Positions 3,745 to 15,072 are shown, counted from the first letter of the stretch. The stretch: DNA of 64,000 nt from Candidatus Aenigmatarchaeota archaeon (GCA_039090665.1 JAWCSL010000001.1:32001-96000), one strand, 5' to 3'. Numbers and translations are program-made. Notes: generated by a model not told the origin, from the letters alone.

Positions 3745-3851
3745 GCTGGCGTGGATTAGCCTGGCTAAATCGCGGCGCTCATAGCATCTATGAGCTTTGA
3801 TAAAGGATGAAAGAAACGCCGAGATCGCGGGTTCAAATCCCGCCGCCAGCA
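3745..3851 (+). tRNA. tRNA-Met(CAT), elongator type, with 32-nt intron at 37/38 (3784-3815)
   Basis: Acceptor GCTGGCG/CGCCAGC, anticodon stem CGGCG/CGCCG, CAT at 3780-3782, T-loop GTTCAAATC; G1-C72 rather than initiator A1-U72; splice motif is relaxed, not a strict BHB. Confidence 0.9.
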
Positions 3852-3920
3852 TTAGTTTTCTAAGTATCTCCCTAGTTTAGTTTAGGAACATATATAATCT
3901 TTCTCAACCAACAGAAAATT

Positions 3921-5066
3921 GTGAAAGAACCTAAAACTAGAATAGGAATATGTGAATACCATTTGTGTAAAAAGAAAACAAAAGTTTTCTTGTGTAAGTA
4001 TTGTGGAAAGTATTTTTGCAAAAAACACATACAACCGAAACCTGTTTTAAGTTTGAGACAAGTTTCCACTGCTAAAGAACCTTTAAGAAGTAAGTTGGAA
4101 AAAATATGGAGAAGTGAAAAAGGACACCCTGATTCTAATTTTACACCAATATTCTGGAGAAGGTTTGAAAAAGAAGAGAAACTCAAACTAGAAATAATGT
4201 GGGACACATTAAACAAGTTAAAAGAATTGAAAAAATTGGAAAGAGTTGATCTTATGGAAACCAAATCAGTCAAAGAAACTCGTACACAAACAAACAGTGA
4301 TATTAAAATCAAAAATACTTTGACAGTCCTAACTTTAATAATTGTTTTCATTATTTTGGCTTTGTTTGTCATAAATTTACCCACAGGAAACCTTTCTGAA
4401 AATCATACGTTCATCTCAGAAAATATAATACAAACTACTTCCACCACATTAAAGATCACATTAGAAAAGGAAGAAAGTAAAAAGTACTTTGTAGATTTAA
4501 ATTTTTCTACCCCTTTCCCCAGGCTTAATAAAACTTTTTTAATCAATAACTTTTATTCCGTTTATATTAACGATTCTCTTTTGAAAATAATAGATCCAAA
4601 TTGTACCGACTTTTGTAACAAGAGCATAGAAGCTGTCAAAAAAGCATTTAAAATATGGGAAGAAGAAATCAAATTAATCGATTTCGAGTTTGTAGGAGTT
4701 GAAAAAAATCATACAATCTATGTCGAGATAACAGCAGAAATGCCTATTGATGTAGTAGAAAAAGAATTTGTTTCTTATGCTGTAGGTTATACTATACCTT
4801 ACGGCTACGAATGTGGAAACTATGTGTTTGTAAAGGGAGGGAAGATTTACCTTTCACCTAAGAAAGAACAACACTTACTCAAAATTGCCATGCACGAGAT
4901 AGGTCATATTTTGAATCTGGCTGATGTTGGGAACAAAGATTCTATAATGTGTAAGTGGAGTGAAGAAGAAATAGTCTCTGAAGAAGAGTTGAGAAAAAGT
5001 ATAAACCAGGAAATAAAAGAAACTTTGAAAATGATTGTCAAACCAGAGTATGATTGTGGAGTTTAA
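3921..5066 (+). CDS. Membrane-anchored zinc metalloprotease (matrixin-like) with N-terminal AN1-like Zn finger
   Basis: CEYHLC..CKYCGKYFCKKH, central TM helix, HEIGHILNLAD followed by Met-turn SIM. Confidence 0.7.
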   Translation: MKEPKTRIGICEYHLCKKKTKVFLCKYCGKYFCKKHIQPKPVLSLRQVSTAKEPLRSKLEKIWRSEKGHPDSNFTPIFWRRFEKEEKLKLEIMWDTLNKLKELKKLERVDLMETKSVKETRTQTNSDIKIKNTLTVLTLIIVFIILALFVINLPTGNLSENHTFISENIIQTTSTTLKITLEKEESKKYFVDLNFSTPFPRLNKTFLINNFYSVYINDSLLKIIDPNCTDFCNKSIEAVKKAFKIWEEEIKLIDFEFVGVEKNHTIYVEITAEMPIDVVEKEFVSYAVGYTIPYGYECGNYVFVKGGKIYLSPKKEQHLLKIAMHEIGHILNLADVGNKDSIMCKWSEEEIVSEEELRKSINQEIKETLKMIVKPEYDCGV

Positions 5067-5136
5067 GGAGTGGATCTTAAAAAACAGTTGATTTTTAAAA
5101 CTTTCAAAATAAAAATAAATTAAACCGGTGTTGAGT

Positions 5137-5355
5137 ATGGTAGAGTTAACACCAGAAGAAACAAAAGTAGTTGAGGCGATGAAATCTTTGAAAGCGATAG
5201 CAGAAGACAAGATAAAAGATGCAGATCAAATAGCAAAAGCCGCGATGATGCCAAAAGGTAAAGTTGCGAACATTCTTTTGAGTTTGGTCAACAAGAAGGT
5301 CGTCAAAAGAGTTGCAAGAGAAAAGGCAGCAGGCTACTATTTACTTCAATCTTGA
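5137..5355 (+). CDS. Small winged-HTH protein
   Basis: Helix pattern DQIAKAAMMPKGKVANILLSLVNKKVV, wing GYYLL. Confidence 0.65.
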   Translation: MVELTPEETKVVEAMKSLKAIAEDKIKDADQIAKAAMMPKGKVANILLSLVNKKVVKRVAREKAAGYYLLQS

Positions 5356-5400
5356 CAAAACTTGATTTTTCAATTGAATTTTGTTTAGTGGTATTTCTAG

Positions 5401-5473
5401 GGCCAAGGTCGGGATTCGAACCCGAACAAAGGGCTCCACAGGCCCTTGTGCTAACCGTTACACCACCTTGGCC
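5401..5473 (-). tRNA. tRNA-His(GTG) with encoded G-1
   Basis: Reverse complement folds as GCCAAGG/CCTTGGC, anticodon arm AGGGC-CTGTGGA-GCCCT, C73 discriminator, G at -1. Confidence 0.95.
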
Positions 5474-5474
5474 A

Positions 5475-6614
5475 TTAATAAAATTCTATCTCAACTTCTT
5501 TTAATGCTTTTTCTATCATTTCCTTAATATTTAACTTTTCTTCAAATTTTTTCACAAGCTTAAAATTTCCGGCAGCGCTGGCATGTTTTGGTGTGAATAA
5601 GGTGCAACAATCTTCTTGCGGTTTAATTGAAATATCATAAGTTCCAATTTTTTTCGCCAAATTAATTATTTCTTCTTTATCCATTCCAATCAAAGGTCTC
5701 AAAATTGGCAAGCTCGTAACCTCTTCTATTATTTTCAAATTTTTCAAAGTTTGTGAACTAACTTGAGCTAGACTCTCACCAGTTACTATTCCTTCACAAT
5801 TTTCTTTTTCTGCAATCCTTTCTGCAATTCTTAACATCATCCTTCGATAAAGTAAAATTCTGTAGTTTGGTTCAGTGCAAGCCTTAATTTTCATTTGGAT
5901 TTCATGAAAAGGAATGAAATAAACTTTAAGTCTAGGTTGATAATTCAAGAAAATTTTTGCCAGCTCTTTAACTTTTTGGATGCTTGAATTTGAAACTAGT
6001 GGAAAGCTGTGGAAATGTAGCCAAATGTTTTCAGAACCACGCTTTGCAATCAAATAGCTTGCTACAGGCGAATCAATTCCACCAGAAATTAAAGCTAGAG
6101 CTTTCCCGCCTGTACCAACAGGCAAACCCCCCTTACCTTTTTTCTTTTTAAAGTAAATAAACCATCCTGTTTTCCTTGCTTCTAAGAACAATTCAACATC
6201 CGGCTTTTCCAAATCAACTTTTCTTTCAATCTTGCTTGCAACTTTTCTGATTATTTCTTCACTACTTTCTTTCAAATTCCCTTTCTTTAGCCTTATTGCA
6301 AAAGTTTGTTTTTTCTCTATCCATTTTTCATAATTTTCTTTAACAAATTCCAAAACCTCTTGTAAATTGCCTTCTAAAAAAATTGCCTTAGCAAACCAAG
6401 AAATCCCAAAAACATTTTTAATGATTTTCTCCGCTTTTTTTGTTTCGCTTGTTTCAACAAAAATTCTCTCTCTTGAAGGAAAAATCTTAAACTTCAATTT
6501 TGCTACTTTAAGTGAAAGGGAAATGTTTTGAATAAGCTTTTGCAGAAAAATGCTCCTAACTCTTTCAGATTTCAAGAAAAGCTCACCAAATGCTATTAGA
6601 ATTCCTTCTTTCAT
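5475..6614 (-). CDS. thiI: tRNA 4-thiouridine synthase ThiI
   Basis: GELFLKS, THUMP domain, SGGIDSPVA PP-loop, GESLAQVSSQT, DCC. Confidence 0.95.
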   Translation of the reverse strand: MKEGILIAFGELFLKSERVRSIFLQKLIQNISLSLKVAKLKFKIFPSRERIFVETSETKKAEKIIKNVFGISWFAKAIFLEGNLQEVLEFVKENYEKWIEKKQTFAIRLKKGNLKESSEEIIRKVASKIERKVDLEKPDVELFLEARKTGWFIYFKKKKGKGGLPVGTGGKALALISGGIDSPVASYLIAKRGSENIWLHFHSFPLVSNSSIQKVKELAKIFLNYQPRLKVYFIPFHEIQMKIKACTEPNYRILLYRRMMLRIAERIAEKENCEGIVTGESLAQVSSQTLKNLKIIEEVTSLPILRPLIGMDKEEIINLAKKIGTYDISIKPQEDCCTLFTPKHASAAGNFKLVKKFEEKLNIKEMIEKALKEVEIEFY

Positions 6615-6696
6615 TTTCCCAATTTAGATTAGTTTTTCTTAAATTTTAAGGTAAAGAAACCAGAAAATGAAAATTTCATTTACAAAACAAAAACAC

Positions 6697-14181: not shown

Positions 14182-14231
14182 ACTCAAGGCGGTCATTTGA
14201 TTTAATGATATTCCGCTGCCTTGGGCGGCAT
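14182..14231 (+). ncRNA. 23S BHB intron 1 (50 nt, after ~A1927), D'/C' guide-like
   Basis: GTCG/CGGC helix, TAA and ATA bulges. Confidence 0.88.
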
Positions 14232-14545
14232 AAGTAGCGTAATCCCTTGCCGTTTAAATGACGGCCCGTCTGAACGGCTTAACGACTTCCCCACTGTCCT
14301 GGGCTGGGACCCAGTGAACTCGCCTTTCCGGTGAATAGGCCGGAGACCTCCTGTGGGAAACGAAGACCCCGTAGAGCTTTACTGCAGTCTGGTGTTGTGG
14401 TAAGGTTGTGACTGCATAGAGTAGGTAGGACTCGCTATTAGGCTGAGGCTTCGGCCGAAAGCTGAGAGGAAAGTGTAACACTACCCTTTCGCAACCTTAC
14501 CGCTAACTCGAAAGAGGACAGCACCAGATGGGCAGTTCGGCTGGG

Positions 14546-14631
14546 AGTCTAGAAGTCTAAATGAGGAGTCCCTTAAGTTATGATTTTTTATGATTAAGGG
14601 CATACGAACCGAAAGGCTTCTAGACCAGCAA
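14546..14631 (+). ncRNA. 23S BHB intron 2 (86 nt, P-loop, after ~G2252) containing a four-box C/D sRNA
   Basis: GCTG/CAGC helix, GGA and AAG bulges; removal restores GCTGGGGCGG. Confidence 0.93.
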
Positions 14632-14686
14632 GCGGTACGCCCTCGGTAAAGGATCGAGGGCGCCCAAAGGTCAGCTCATCCGGGTC

Positions 14687-14775
14687 ATGGTAGAGTCTAG
14701 TAAATGATTGGACCGTTCCAGAATGATCTTAATGATTTCTGAGGTAGCTGATGAGAATAGGCTCTACCACCCGCA
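14687..14775 (+). ncRNA. 23S BHB intron 3 (89 nt, after ~C2306) containing a four-box C/D sRNA
   Basis: CGGG/CCCG helix, TCA and CAA bulges; removal restores CGGGTCAGAAATCC. Confidence 0.92.
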
Positions 14776-14919
14776 AGAAATCCGGAGTAGAGTGTAAGCG
14801 CAAAAGCTGGCCTGACTGGATTCCGCAAAGCGAGGAATCCAGCCGCGAAAGCGTGGGCTAGCGATACTTCGGTTCCTCTTAATGGGGGCCGGAGGTATCA
14901 GAAAAGCTACCTCGGGGAT

Positions 14920-14973
14920 AAACTAGCTAGGGCTGATTAAATTATTTTTCTTCATATCTAGCTAGTTCCCTAA
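14920..14973 (+). ncRNA. 23S BHB intron 4 (54 nt, after ~U2449)
   Basis: GGGG/CCCT helix, ATA and AAA bulges, AACTAGCTAG/CTAGCTAGTT stem. Confidence 0.88.
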
Positions 14974-15001
14974 AATGGGCCCGTGGCCGGCGAAAGCCCA
15001 C

Positions 15002-15072
15002 TGCTCGAAGGGGTTTTTCGTCCCAAAGATAGCGAGCCTCGGGTTCTGAACTCGAGCCCTTCGCGCGGGTAA
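15002..15072 (+). ncRNA. 23S BHB intron 5 (71 nt, after ~2477)
   Basis: GCCC/GGGT helix, ACT and AAA bulges; removal restores AGCCCACATTGACCC. Confidence 0.9.

Follow-up and report, generated by a model that had tools for sequence, protein, structure and literature searches.

The window analysed here is a 64,000-nt stretch of the genome of a Candidatus Aenigmatarchaeota member, a tiny hot-spring archaeon with a 620 kb genome and DNA of 34% G+C. All features described below lie on its + strand. They include an elongator-type tRNA-Met(CAU) gene with an intron at 37/38 (3745..3851; Rfam tRNA match, 53.1 bits), a 16S rRNA gene with three BHB introns (6869..8605; Rfam RF01959, 1297 bits; 1464 nt when spliced) and a 23S rRNA gene with five (12179..15522; Rfam RF02540, 2578 bits; 2994 nt when spliced). 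Intron borders were set by pairwise alignment to intron-less relatives together with a BHB scan. A sequence-only reading of the window had placed a tRNA-Met intron and eight rRNA introns of 50–106 nt in the span 3784..15072, and these sizes and the two ends of the span agree with the present results. A canonical BHB, with a 4/4-bp central helix and a 3-nt bulge on either side, is found in 8/8 rRNA introns, and in all eight the exon junction of the intron-less relatives equals a cut after the second bulge nucleotide. The tRNA-Met intron (3784-3815, 32 nt) has a relaxed BHB with only 2/4 central pairs. RNA-library contigs join the exons precisely at 14181>14232 (23S-i1), 14919>14974 (23S-i4) and 15001>15073 (23S-i5), with short sides of 18–28 nt for which intron-less relatives are a possible source; loose ends of such contigs give the 23S-i3 junction, and contigs of a DNA run read through the introns. 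Given the BHB motifs, the EndA and RtcB genes present in the genome and the RNA contig joints, the rRNA introns are real introns.

As had been read from the sequence, six of the nine introns (the tRNA-Met intron, 16S-i1, 16S-i3, 23S-i1, 23S-i2 and 23S-i3) show an antisense element followed by NTGA, a short linker and RTGA, and all four C/D boxes occur in three of them, 16S-i3, 23S-i2 and 23S-i3. The two spacers measure 12 nt each in 23S-i2 and 23S-i3, against 13 and 12 nt in 16S-i3, and boxes depart from consensus, with AUGAUUN and AUGA instead of RUGAUGA and CUGA. Each intron was compared with 300 dinucleotide shuffles, scored by the best box-adjacent duplex covering position 5. The observed score was reached by 12 shuffles for 16S-i3, 5 for 23S-i2 and 10 for 23S-i3, and elsewhere by 14 (23S-i4), 45 (16S-i2), 45 (23S-i1), 93 (23S-i5), 139 (16S-i1) and 146 (the tRNA-Met intron, which alone in the window is not significant). 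In this control, which had been proposed with the earlier reading, single-sequence support is weak for most introns, and 16S-i1, 23S-i1, 23S-i5 and the tRNA-Met intron are matched equally well by their shuffles. Taken alone, the window exceeds chance only partly; what lifts the signal above chance is the conservation and covariation seen in relatives. When the entire 620-kb genome was scanned for dual C/D RNAs under relaxed settings, 19 matches were returned versus 1, 4 and 6 in shuffles, and the three matches with the best rRNA duplexes all fall within the rRNA operon.

The intron 16S-i3 (8452-8557, 106 nt; E. coli site 1492/1493) holds a module at 8478-8528 composed of C AUGAAAG, 13 nt, D' CUGA, 4 nt, C' AUGAUGA, 12 nt and D UUGA. 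Its D' guide forms 11 bp with helix 44 and sets the predicted N+5 (the nucleotide opposite guide position 5, counted upstream from D or D') at A1408. The other guide, GGAGGUGA at box D, is complementary to the 3' end of 16S, which gives a predicted N+5 of C1535. This module is present in 14/16 inserts of the same region in relatives, at three different insertion sites, and both registers, A1408 and C1535, are kept in 14/14, with a degenerate D box (UUAA, UAAA, UAAG) in 3/14. The intron 23S-i2 (14546-14631, 86 nt; E. coli site 2252/2253, inside the P loop) reads C AUGAGGA, 12 nt, D' AUGA (14580), 6 nt, C' AUGAUUA, 12 nt and D CCGA (14609). Both of its guides are aimed at 16S rRNA, one through 11 bp (N+5 at E. 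coli 912) and the other through 9 bp (N+5 at E. coli 1203). A single homologue was found (L060, D = CUGA).

The third complete guide, in 23S-i3 (14687-14775, 89 nt; E. coli site 2306/2307), spans 14704-14754 and consists of C AUGAUUG, 12 nt, D' AUGA, 5 nt, C' AUGAUUU, 12 nt and D AUGA. Through its D' guide it pairs with CUGGGGCGGU of the P loop, with a predicted N+5 of G2251, a register kept in 15/15; through its D guide it pairs with AGCUACCUC, with a predicted N+5 of U2438. Across 36 such RNAs, positions 2–11 of the P-loop guide are paired in 30–36/36, compared with 11/36 for position 1 and 8/36 for position 12, and variation opposite G is C<->U. The pair C6-D1 forms in 31/36 distinct RNAs (U-A 22, G-C 8, A-U 1) and C'6-D'1 in 32/36 (U-A 20, A-U 6, G-C 5, U-G 1), each level being reached in 0/5000 shuffles, and the G-A dinucleotide of each box is present in 29–32/33. 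These box pairs covary in the pattern that a K-turn demands. Guide/target covariation in related genomes, which the sequence-only reading had suggested looking for, was seen in L042 (G>A with C2254>U), L052 (A>G with U2257>C) and L046 (C>U with G>A) for the 23S-i3 type, in L023 and L028 for the 16S module, and in L061 for 23S-i5 (see below). Because 23S-i2 splits the P-loop target of 23S-i3 in this genome, 23S-i3 would have to act in trans or after splicing. Two of the predicted sites, 23S G2251 and 16S A1408, are also predicted for ordinary archaeal sRNAs: in its available text, Dennis et al. 2015 predict sRNA-guided methylation of G2251 in three archaea and of A1408 in two, in E. coli numbering (PMC4644070). 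Combined, these features suggest that genuine archaeal box C/D guide RNAs are the cargo of three or more of the eight rRNA introns, namely at least 16S-i3, 23S-i2 and 23S-i3.

A smaller, C'/D'-type K-loop only is found in 16S-i1, 23S-i1 and the tRNA-Met intron. In 16S-i1 (7604-7682, 79 nt; E. coli site 801/802; BHB 4/4), the guide GGGUAUCU (7614-7621) precedes D' CUGA (7623-7626) and C' AGAUGAA (7632-7638). It is antisense to the adjoining 5' exon with a predicted N+5 of U793, fits 23S U2552 about as well, and is accompanied by a second arm, GCUAGGA, antisense to the 3' exon. All 9 site-homologous introns (8 distinct) retain this motif with its U793 register, and no stand-alone copy was found among 131 sampled genomes. 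The half-size guide of 23S-i1 (14182-14231, 50 nt; E. coli site 1927/1928; BHB 4/4) consists of GGCGGUCA, D' UUGA (14197-14200), a 4-nt loop and C' AAUGAUA, with a predicted N+5 of C1920 in helix 69; both the motif and the C1920 register are kept in 8/9 site-homologous introns. That of the tRNA-Met intron consists of CUAUGAGC (3788-3795), D' UUGA (3797-3800) and C' GGAUGAA (3805-3811). The position 5 upstream of D' pairs with the wobble nucleotide C34 of its own tRNA, and the arrangement AUGAGC-U-(U/C)UGA-loop-GAUGA is kept in seven relatives. Archaeal half-guides are poor methylation guides alone in vitro. The antisense elements of all three introns pair with the exon beside the splice site and partly overlap the hairpin stems of the intron, so a structural role for these arms is possible. 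In our preferred reading, 16S-i1, 23S-i1 and the tRNA-Met intron probably act as guides in reduced form.

Other elements of the locus differ in kind. The intron 16S-i2 (8083-8170, 88 nt; E. coli site 1197/1198; BHB 4/4) folds into an outer stem, an internal-loop 'pocket', a 6-bp upper stem and a tandem G.A cap (K-loop), with ACA after the lower stem. Its stems covary among four homologues (8 pairs with double changes), and the pockets of relatives fit 16S UGGGCGU-UG-CGGUUC (E. coli U950) in a way matched by 0, 3 and 10 of 300 shuffles. The window's own pocket has no significant target match, 97/300 shuffles being as good. The earlier suggestion of one H/ACA-shaped intron holds for the fold and its covarying stems but not for the target of this copy, and 16S-i2 is probably an H/ACA-type guide that is better preserved in relatives than here. 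A search for a Gar1 gene found none. An intron with box-less antisense arms had also been proposed; this is 23S-i5 (15002-15072, 71 nt; E. coli site 2477/2478), whose arm AGAUAGCGA (15027-15035) is complementary to 23S UCGCUAUCU (E. coli about 2609). The arm motif occurs in 6/11 homologues under a strict pattern and covaries with its target: in L061 the arm is GAUAACGA and the target is altered to UCGUUAUC, a compensatory change. The intron 23S-i4 (14920-14973, 54 nt; E. coli site 2449/2450; BHB 4/4) is a plain hairpin, and no conserved internal motif was found among homologues at the same site. Additionally, the genome-wide C/D scan revealed a box C/D-like RNA, absent from the earlier reading, in the 5' leader of the 23S rRNA (12086..12137). 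In it, the D guide CGAACUGUCU is complementary to AGACAGUUCG of 23S, with a predicted N+5 of A2600; loci of at least 15 relatives keep such an RNA about 60 nt 5' of the 23S gene.

Two of these guide RNAs are also housed elsewhere in other Aenigmatarchaeota, as free-standing genes, within a tRNA-Ser intron or at different rRNA intron sites. A search of 185,579 species genomes with the 16S module pattern returned 61 matches, placed in the 16S 3' region (40), in tRNA introns (10), free-standing (2) or in bacteria and chance-like (9); ARAGORN called the host tRNA-Ser(UGA) for 8 of the 10 tRNA-intron copies. The 23S-i3 pattern was matched in 37/370 phylum genomes versus 1 with a reversed-pattern control. 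Thirty such loci were read: 14 are at the 23S site itself, 1 is elsewhere in 23S, and the other 15 are free-standing genes that have an A/T-rich box upstream and a terminal stem. Exactly one copy is present in 36/37 matching genomes, and G021 has the RNA free-standing and lacks the 23S intron; where an intron copy is present, it is therefore the sole 23S-i3-type copy.

The K-turn/K-loop motifs and antisense arms could instead serve as splicing or folding aids, with L7Ae binding and the arms holding exons for the BHB or ordering the folding, with no methyl transfer. Such a role would suit 16S-i1, 23S-i1 and the tRNA-Met intron, which pair right beside their own splice sites and are devoid of terminal C/D boxes, as well as the 23S-i5 arm, which covaries although box-less. 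Masking of the 3' end of 16S by the GGAGGUGA arm of 16S-i3 could be a maturation checkpoint, and the guide duplex and BHB of the tRNA-Met intron share overlapping nucleotides. We nevertheless consider this explanation unlikely: 23S-i2 sits in 23S, yet both its guides match 16S rRNA; RNAs in tRNA-Ser introns or free-standing genes cannot help splice an rRNA site; exact 12-nt spacers and a fixed N+5 register are traits of methylation guides; and the G2251 and A1408 targets coincide with those predicted for canonical sRNAs. Less probable still is that these are selfish mobile BHB introns that acquired guide genes by accident, the cargo being neutral or decaying and working guides lying elsewhere. 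Movement is implied by the module's presence at three 16S sites, two 23S sites, a tRNA intron and intergenic positions, relatives bear many other rRNA inserts (some of 600–1000 nt), and some copies have degenerate boxes; against this stand the single 23S-i3-type copy per genome, the free-standing copy of G021 and the purifying and compensatory selection evident on guides and box pairs of intron copies. That the boxes and short complementarities arose by chance in A/T-rich intron loops is very improbable, even with window-only shuffles often reaching the observed score for 5/9 introns and UGA-containing words being common in 34% G+C DNA, since conservation of the motifs across families of the phylum, box-pair covariation, the reversed-pattern control and compensatory changes in several genomes contradict it for 16S-i3, 23S-i2 and 23S-i3 and leave it only parts of the weaker introns.

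Our preferred reading, to which we assign a probability of roughly three in four, is that BHB introns of the rRNA genes carry guide RNAs for the host's own ribosome, in complete form in 16S-i3, 23S-i2 and 23S-i3 and probably in reduced form in 16S-i1, 23S-i1 and the tRNA-Met intron. Comparative support for this claim, already made from the window alone, is strong for three introns and moderate for three more and the tRNA-Met intron. Fibrillarin and Nop5 genes, whose absence would have spoken against it, are present and adjacent on contig C3, with an L7Ae gene on contig C11. From these sequence features, we infer a mechanism in which the pre-rRNA would be transcribed with the guides inside. L7Ae would bind the K-turn (C/D) and K-loop (C'/D') of each intron, followed by assembly of Nop5 and fibrillarin. 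The 12-nt guides would then pair with rRNA, and fibrillarin would 2'-O-methylate the N+5 nucleotide, the predicted sites being 23S G2251, U2438 and C1920, 16S A1408, C1535, 912, 1203 and U793, and tRNA-Met C34. EndA would cut the BHB, and RtcB would ligate the exons and probably circularise the intron, which could go on acting in trans.

Among the closest known systems is the euryarchaeal pre-tRNA-Trp intron (Haloferax volcanii, Pyrococcus sR50), a box C/D guide (Clouet d'Orval 2001 and Singh 2004, as cited in the available text of PMC7994747 and PMC3326292). As described there, it too is a BHB intron built around a box C/D RNA; it directs 2'-O-methylation of the very RNA that hosts it, at positions 34 and 39, and its excised form is circular and stable. 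That host is a tRNA with targets in the same small molecule, whereas here the hosts are 16S and 23S rRNA, the targets are tens to thousands of nucleotides distant or in the other rRNA (23S intron to 16S), and one target is interrupted by another intron. A tRNA-Met intron guide is no novelty, as Nanoarchaeum equitans, also a DPANN archaeon, already has one with C/D features: its elongator tRNA-Met has a 66-nt intron with a stable box C/D-like RNA (Randau 2012, PMC3491384), compared with 32 nt, one K-loop and one guide (C34) here. The available portions of that paper raise the idea of mobile C/D sRNAs and report no rRNA intron guides. Free-standing archaeal sRNAs, in the accessible text of PMC4644070, share the predicted target nucleotides, the 12-nt guide geometry and the protein machinery; they are independent genes, unlike the intron guides. 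The rRNA introns of Thermoproteales and Desulfurococcales are likewise BHB introns in conserved rRNA regions, some short and non-coding, and the available text of Jay and Inskeep 2015 describes them as homing-endonuclease carriers or short non-coding remnants (PMC4496867); the paper nowhere uses the words 'sRNA', 'guide' or 'methylation'. We found no report in the literature of guides in rRNA introns.

Eukaryotic intronic snoRNAs offer a parallel, being guides freed from introns of a host transcript linked to ribosome production; as outlined in the available text of PMC7994747, they come from spliceosomal pre-mRNA introns and are released by debranching and exonucleases, not from BHB introns within rRNA. 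Since related genomes carry the same RNAs free-standing or as tRNA-Ser intron cargo, the guide appears to be the conserved unit and the intron an interchangeable housing. Splicing may supply a stoichiometric set of circular guides, and the guide role may explain why the introns are retained.

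The genome comprises 620 kb in 15 contigs at 34% G+C, and hot-spring metagenome runs contain matching DNA. Rfam models placed a single SSU rRNA gene at 6869–8605 and a single LSU rRNA gene at 12179–15522, both exceeding model length, as well as a tRNA-Met gene with an insert at 3745–3851 that ARAGORN missed. Pairwise alignment against intron-less relatives resolved three inserts in the 16S gene: 16S-i1 (7604–7682, 79 nt; E. coli site 801/802), 16S-i2 (8083–8170, 88 nt; 1197/1198) and 16S-i3 (8452–8557, 106 nt; 1492/1493). Five were resolved in the 23S gene: 23S-i1 (14182–14231, 50 nt; 1927/1928), 23S-i2 (14546–14631, 86 nt; 2252/2253, within the P loop), 23S-i3 (14687–14775, 89 nt; 2306/2307), 23S-i4 (14920–14973, 54 nt; 2449/2450) and 23S-i5 (15002–15072, 71 nt; 2477/2478). 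Short extra segments at 12762–12797 and 15382–15417 are common to all relatives and are taken as lineage-specific helices and not introns. Relative G005, a 1.7-Mb genome of the "same genus" (loci L001, L029, L035 and L060), contains three distinct rRNA sets and probably represents a mixed bin; its one intron-free set served solely as an alignment reference.

A scan for bulge-helix-bulge (BHB) motifs found one in all eight rRNA introns, each with a 4/4-bp central helix formed by the 5′ exon end and the intron end, two 3-nt bulges and an inner helix of 2–12 bp. Cutting after the second bulge nucleotide gives an exon join identical to the intron-less sequence in each case. The tRNA-Met intron (tMet, 3784–3815) has a relaxed BHB with 2/4 central pairs. 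Alignment and BHB scan together bear out the intron coordinates, sizes and counts of the earlier sequence-only reading, and its observation of a D′/C′ motif in six of the nine window introns was likewise correct.

That reading held that these introns encode guide RNAs for the host's own ribosome, and proposed a shuffled-sequence control. Every NTGA in each intron was taken together with the 12–13 nt upstream, and the best contiguous duplex covering guide position 5 was scored against the spliced 16S, the spliced 23S and two tRNAs, with 300 dinucleotide shuffles per intron. Shuffles reached the observed score in 5/300 cases for 23S-i2, 10/300 for 23S-i3, 12/300 for 16S-i3, 14/300 for 23S-i4 (a plain hairpin), 45/300 each for 16S-i2 and 23S-i1, 93/300 for 23S-i5, 139/300 for 16S-i1 and 146/300 for tMet. 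The guide claim passed this control for 16S-i3, 23S-i2 and 23S-i3 and failed it for the shorter elements; window-only significance of the guide matches is confined to the former three. Since the shuffles alone do not rescue the shorter elements, the case depends on relatives. A search of 40 related genomes gave SSU matches in 28 and LSU matches in 25, and target sites in these were mapped by alignment. Many relatives have small inserts at matching rRNA positions, with conserved internal motifs and variable linkers and stems. Guide–target duplexes span 8–12 bp in a register that is constant across relatives. The relatives' rRNA loci also hold many further inserts at 16S and 23S sites, some of 600–1060 nt, which are likely introns with open reading frames.

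Archaeal box C/D sRNAs pair a C box (RUGAUGA) with a D box (CUGA) in a K-turn built on tandem sheared G.A pairs, and D′ with C′ in a K-loop. Spacers of ~12 nt separate C from D′ and C′ from D, and the methylated target nucleotide pairs with guide position 5, counted upstream from D or D′ (N+5). As read from its sequence, 23S-i3 has the layout of a textbook archaeal dual guide: 12 nt separate C AUGAUUG from D′ AUGA and C′ AUGAUUU from D AUGA, 5 nt lie between D′ and C′, and the box letters are off consensus (AUGAUUN, AUGA). Intron copies and extra copies from a pattern search yielded 36 distinct sequences of this type. Positions C6 and D1 are paired in 31/36 (U-A 22, G-C 8, A-U 1) and C′6 and D′1 in 32/36 (U-A 20, A-U 6, G-C 5, U-G 1), counts that none of 5000 shuffles equalled for either pair. 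G-A at box positions 3–4 is present in 30/33 C, 32/33 D, 32/33 D′ and 29/33 C′ boxes, and the boxes stay in register with the fixed 12-nt spacer in 29–32 of 33 relatives. This covariation is the pattern expected for a predicted K-turn and K-loop.

In 15/15 intron copies, the P-loop sequence CUGGGGCGGU is complementary to positions 2–11 of the 23S-i3 D′ guide, with a single mismatch in locus L052, and position 5 is always opposite E. coli G2251. Among all 36 sequences, positions 2–11 are paired in 30–36, position 1 in 11 and position 12 in 8, and guide variation opposite G is exchange of C and U. Two loci show compensatory changes: L042 carries a guide A in place of the usual G, together with U2254 in its own 23S, and L052 carries a guide G in place of the usual A, together with C2257 in its own 23S. 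The D guide pairs with AGCUACCUC (N+5 = U2438), and in L046 a guide U is matched by a target changed to A. A search of the unspliced DNA found no target for the D′ guide; the target spans the 23S-i2 exon junction and was found in the spliced rRNA. Pairing of this guide with the neighbouring 3′ exon (CUCCGGA) was considered and rejected, as exon variants (UCUCGAG) are not tracked by the guide.

In the 16S-i3 module, 13 nt separate C AUGAAAG from D′ CUGA and 12 nt separate C′ AUGAUGA from D UUGA, with 4 nt between D′ and C′. The D′ guide forms 11 bp with helix 44 (N+5 = A1408), and GGAGGUGA, the D guide, is complementary to the 3′ end of 16S (N+5 = C1535). The module recurs in 14/16 relatives' inserts of the same 16S region, at three different insertion sites; the two inserts that lack it are second introns, in genomes that have the module in the neighbouring intron. 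Guide changes in L028 and L023 are matched by target changes, and the D box is degenerate in 3/14 modules. In 23S-i2, spacers of 12 nt separate C AUGAGGA from D′ AUGA and C′ AUGAUUA from D CCGA, with 6 nt between D′ and C′; the D box of its one homologue is CUGA. Both of its guides match 16S, not 23S, with 11 bp at N+5 = E. coli 912 and 9 bp at N+5 = E. coli 1203. Sites G2251 and A1408 are shared with predictions for canonical archaeal C/D sRNAs: among the predicted sites of Dennis et al. 2015 (PMC4644070), sRNA-guided methylation falls at the equivalent of G2251 in three archaea and at A1408 in two, including Nanoarchaeum equitans.

The strongest evidence in the case is that the same guide RNAs occur in other housings. 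An exact-pattern scan for the 16S-i3 core, with one genome for each of 185,579 species, returned 61 places, of which 40 are in the 3′ region of the 16S gene and ten are within a tRNA intron. Two more are free-standing, in genomes titled Undinarchaeota and Altiarchaeota, and the remaining nine are bacterial, have long gaps and look like chance. Eight of the ten tRNA-intron places were called tRNA-Ser(UGA) by ARAGORN and two were ambiguous; an Rfam tRNA match spans the module in 6/10. The tRNA-Ser(UGA) introns are 52–70 nt long and follow position 37, the canonical site, or lie close to it. The tRNA-intron loci (L071, L079, L081, L089, L093, L094, L107, L110, L120 and L123) are all from Aenigmatarchaeota, and their dual-guide C/D RNAs match 16S, in helix 44 and at the 3′ end, rather than the host tRNA. 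We know of no rRNA-targeting guide from a tRNA intron other than that of tRNA-Trp or tRNA-Met.

The 23S-i3 core pattern was found in 37/370 genomes of the phylum, as compared to one for a reversed-pattern control. The 30 loci returned comprise 14 at the 23S site, one at another 23S site and 15 free-standing genes. The second rRNA position is an intron just upstream of the P loop (L140, on contig C18 of genome G113). The free-standing genes have a terminal stem, an upstream A/T-rich box and more canonical boxes, such as GAUGAGG and CUGA in family f36. In genome G021 the RNA is free-standing and the genome's own 23S is without that intron; 36 of the 37 genomes with a match have one copy each. 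The changing housings, the single copies and the swap in G021 indicate that the guide RNA is the conserved unit and that its housing changes.

The remaining introns are less complete. Both 16S-i1 and 23S-i1 have a sole D′/C′ K-loop preceded by a conserved antisense element, with no terminal C/D boxes. The element in 16S-i1 (GGGUAUCU, N+5 = U793) is kept in 9/9 homologous introns and that in 23S-i1 (GGCGGUCA, N+5 = C1920, helix 69) in 8/9. Both elements pair with exon sequence immediately 5′ of the splice site of their intron and lie in part within the intron hairpins. For the 16S-i1 guide, 23S U2552 is about as good a match as U793. A pattern search of 131 genomes of the class for stand-alone copies of the 16S-i1 type found none, returning four true 16S introns and three coding-sequence matches. 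The intron tMet, again without terminal C/D boxes, keeps AUGAGC-U-(U/C)UGA-loop-GAUGA in seven relatives (N+5 = C34). A tRNA-Met intron with C/D features is common to this archaeon and N. equitans, in which a C/D-like RNA in that intron is already described (PMC3491384).

In 16S-i2, the outer and upper stems covary, tandem G.A pairs in a K-loop cap the upper stem in 4/4 homologues, and ACA follows the lower stem in 3/4 (AAA in L014); the lower stem falls outside the RNAalifold consensus. Box H/ACA sRNAs consist of a lower stem, a pocket, an upper stem with a K-turn or K-loop, and an ACA ~14–16 nt from the pocket top, and their targets show bipartite complementarity around an unpaired U-N. In three relatives, the pocket matches the genome's own 16S around E. 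coli U950, with 7+6, 7+5 and 5+6 bp (0, 10 and 3 of 300 shuffles as good). The window's own pocket fits no better than shuffles near U950 (97/300). This is the intron that the sequence-only reading described as H/ACA-shaped. Pairing of the pocket with the flanking exon (UGGGCGA-CGGU) was rejected, as no unpaired U is left. The box-less antisense arm noted in the same reading corresponds to 23S-i5, in which a conserved AGAUAGCGA (15027–15035) is antisense to 23S near E. coli 2609; arm and target changed together in L061, a compensatory change.

The genome encodes the proteins with which box C/D guides would act. Fibrillarin and Nop5, whose absence had been named as evidence against intron-borne guides, were both found, in genes side by side (289.8 and 215.3 bits). 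Genes for L7Ae (62.4 bits), EndA (94.8 bits), RtcB (547.2 bits), Nop10 and a Cbf5-like TruB protein are present; Gar1 was not found in the genome by a search that missed the Sulfolobus control as well. Across the whole genome, a relaxed scan for dual C/D RNAs gave 19 matches, as compared to 1, 4 and 6 in shuffled genomes, and the best three rRNA duplexes among the 19 belong to 16S-i3, 23S-i3 and an element at 12086–12137. The latter, a candidate box C/D-like RNA, lies in the 5′ leader of 23S, ~40 nt before the gene. Its terminal stem is GGUU/AACC, and its D guide is complementary to AGACAGUUCG of 23S (N+5 = E. coli A2600). At least 15 loci of relatives, from several families, have this element conserved upstream of 23S. 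The 23S target of the 23S-i5 arm adjoins the target of this leader element.

Evidence at the RNA level comes from assembled contigs of RNA libraries, with patchy cover. Joints with an intron removed were observed for 23S-i1 (14181>14232; nine contigs of sequencing run X14), 23S-i4 (14919>14974; two contigs of X14 and one of run X16) and 23S-i5 (15001>15073; one contig of X16), and the spliced 23S-i3 junction can be read from loose ends at 14687 and 14776. DNA-run contigs cross the introns with no differences. The RNA joint sides are short (18–28 nt) and the same joints could come from intron-less relatives, so the exon joins are supportive, not proof. No exon joint for 16S-i1, 16S-i2 or 16S-i3 appears in these patchy contigs, and no circular-intron junction is among the joints listed. 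The 16S–23S gap (8606–12178, ~3.5 kb) contains a tRNA-Ala gene at 11787–11858. RNA-library contigs give almost no cover of 8892–11781, so a single abundant precursor may not cover both 16S and 23S. In two RNA libraries, contigs join the 23S 3′ end (15511 or 15522) to 12196 with 23–36 extra letters between; these joints fit the known circular pre-23S processing intermediate.

We infer all mechanistic steps beyond the sequence features. On the best reading, the introns would be guide RNAs co-transcribed with their rRNA target; L7Ae, Nop5 and fibrillarin would bind them; the bound introns would direct 2′-O-methylation at the N+5 sites; and excision at the BHB would come after guide action. The 23S-i2 intron, which lies between E. 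coli G2252 and G2253 (14544–14546 and 14632), splits the P-loop target of the 23S-i3 guide. The full 23S-i3 duplex could thus form only once 23S-i2 has been removed; this favours action post-splicing or in trans and implies an order of 23S-i2 splicing followed by G2251 methylation.

A bolder reading, to which we give a probability of roughly 0.4, is that BHB introns serve as vehicles for guide genes in Aenigmatarchaeota. The same C/D guide would move among intergenic, tRNA-Ser-intron and several rRNA positions, and would be kept in rRNA because each pre-rRNA then supplies its own guides, in cis or as circles, placing nearly all recognisable guides of this reduced genome in the rRNA operon. The full-text literature searched (main texts, with few subscription journals) contained no description of guide RNAs in rRNA introns, a scope that leaves room for an earlier report. 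The sections on C/D sRNA contexts in a 2021 review (PMC7994747) list tRNA introns, positions downstream of tRNAs, intergenic positions and positions beside genes, with rRNA introns unmentioned, and "sRNA", "guide" and "methylation" occur zero times in the available text of a 16S-intron paper (Jay and Inskeep 2015, PMC4496867). Box C/D guides carried by BHB introns have so far been known from tRNA-Trp and tRNA-Met; rRNA introns would be a new host for them.

The short rRNA introns described here contain conserved, covarying predicted guides for the P loop, the decoding site, helix 69 and the 16S 3′ end. Archaeal rRNA introns have so far been treated as homing-endonuclease carriers or leftover hairpins; predicted guides would give a functional reason for their persistence at functional centres. 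They also present a concrete case of guide genes whose housing switches among stand-alone genes, tRNA introns and rRNA introns, and a testable archaeal parallel to intronic snoRNAs. Surveys of DPANN sRNAs and rRNAs in which introns are masked as insertions will miss such guides. If introns are indeed guide-gene vehicles, archaeal rRNA introns can be functional, neither selfish nor junk, and eukaryotic intron-encoded snoRNAs would have in them a prokaryotic counterpart and possibly, in principle, a forerunner.
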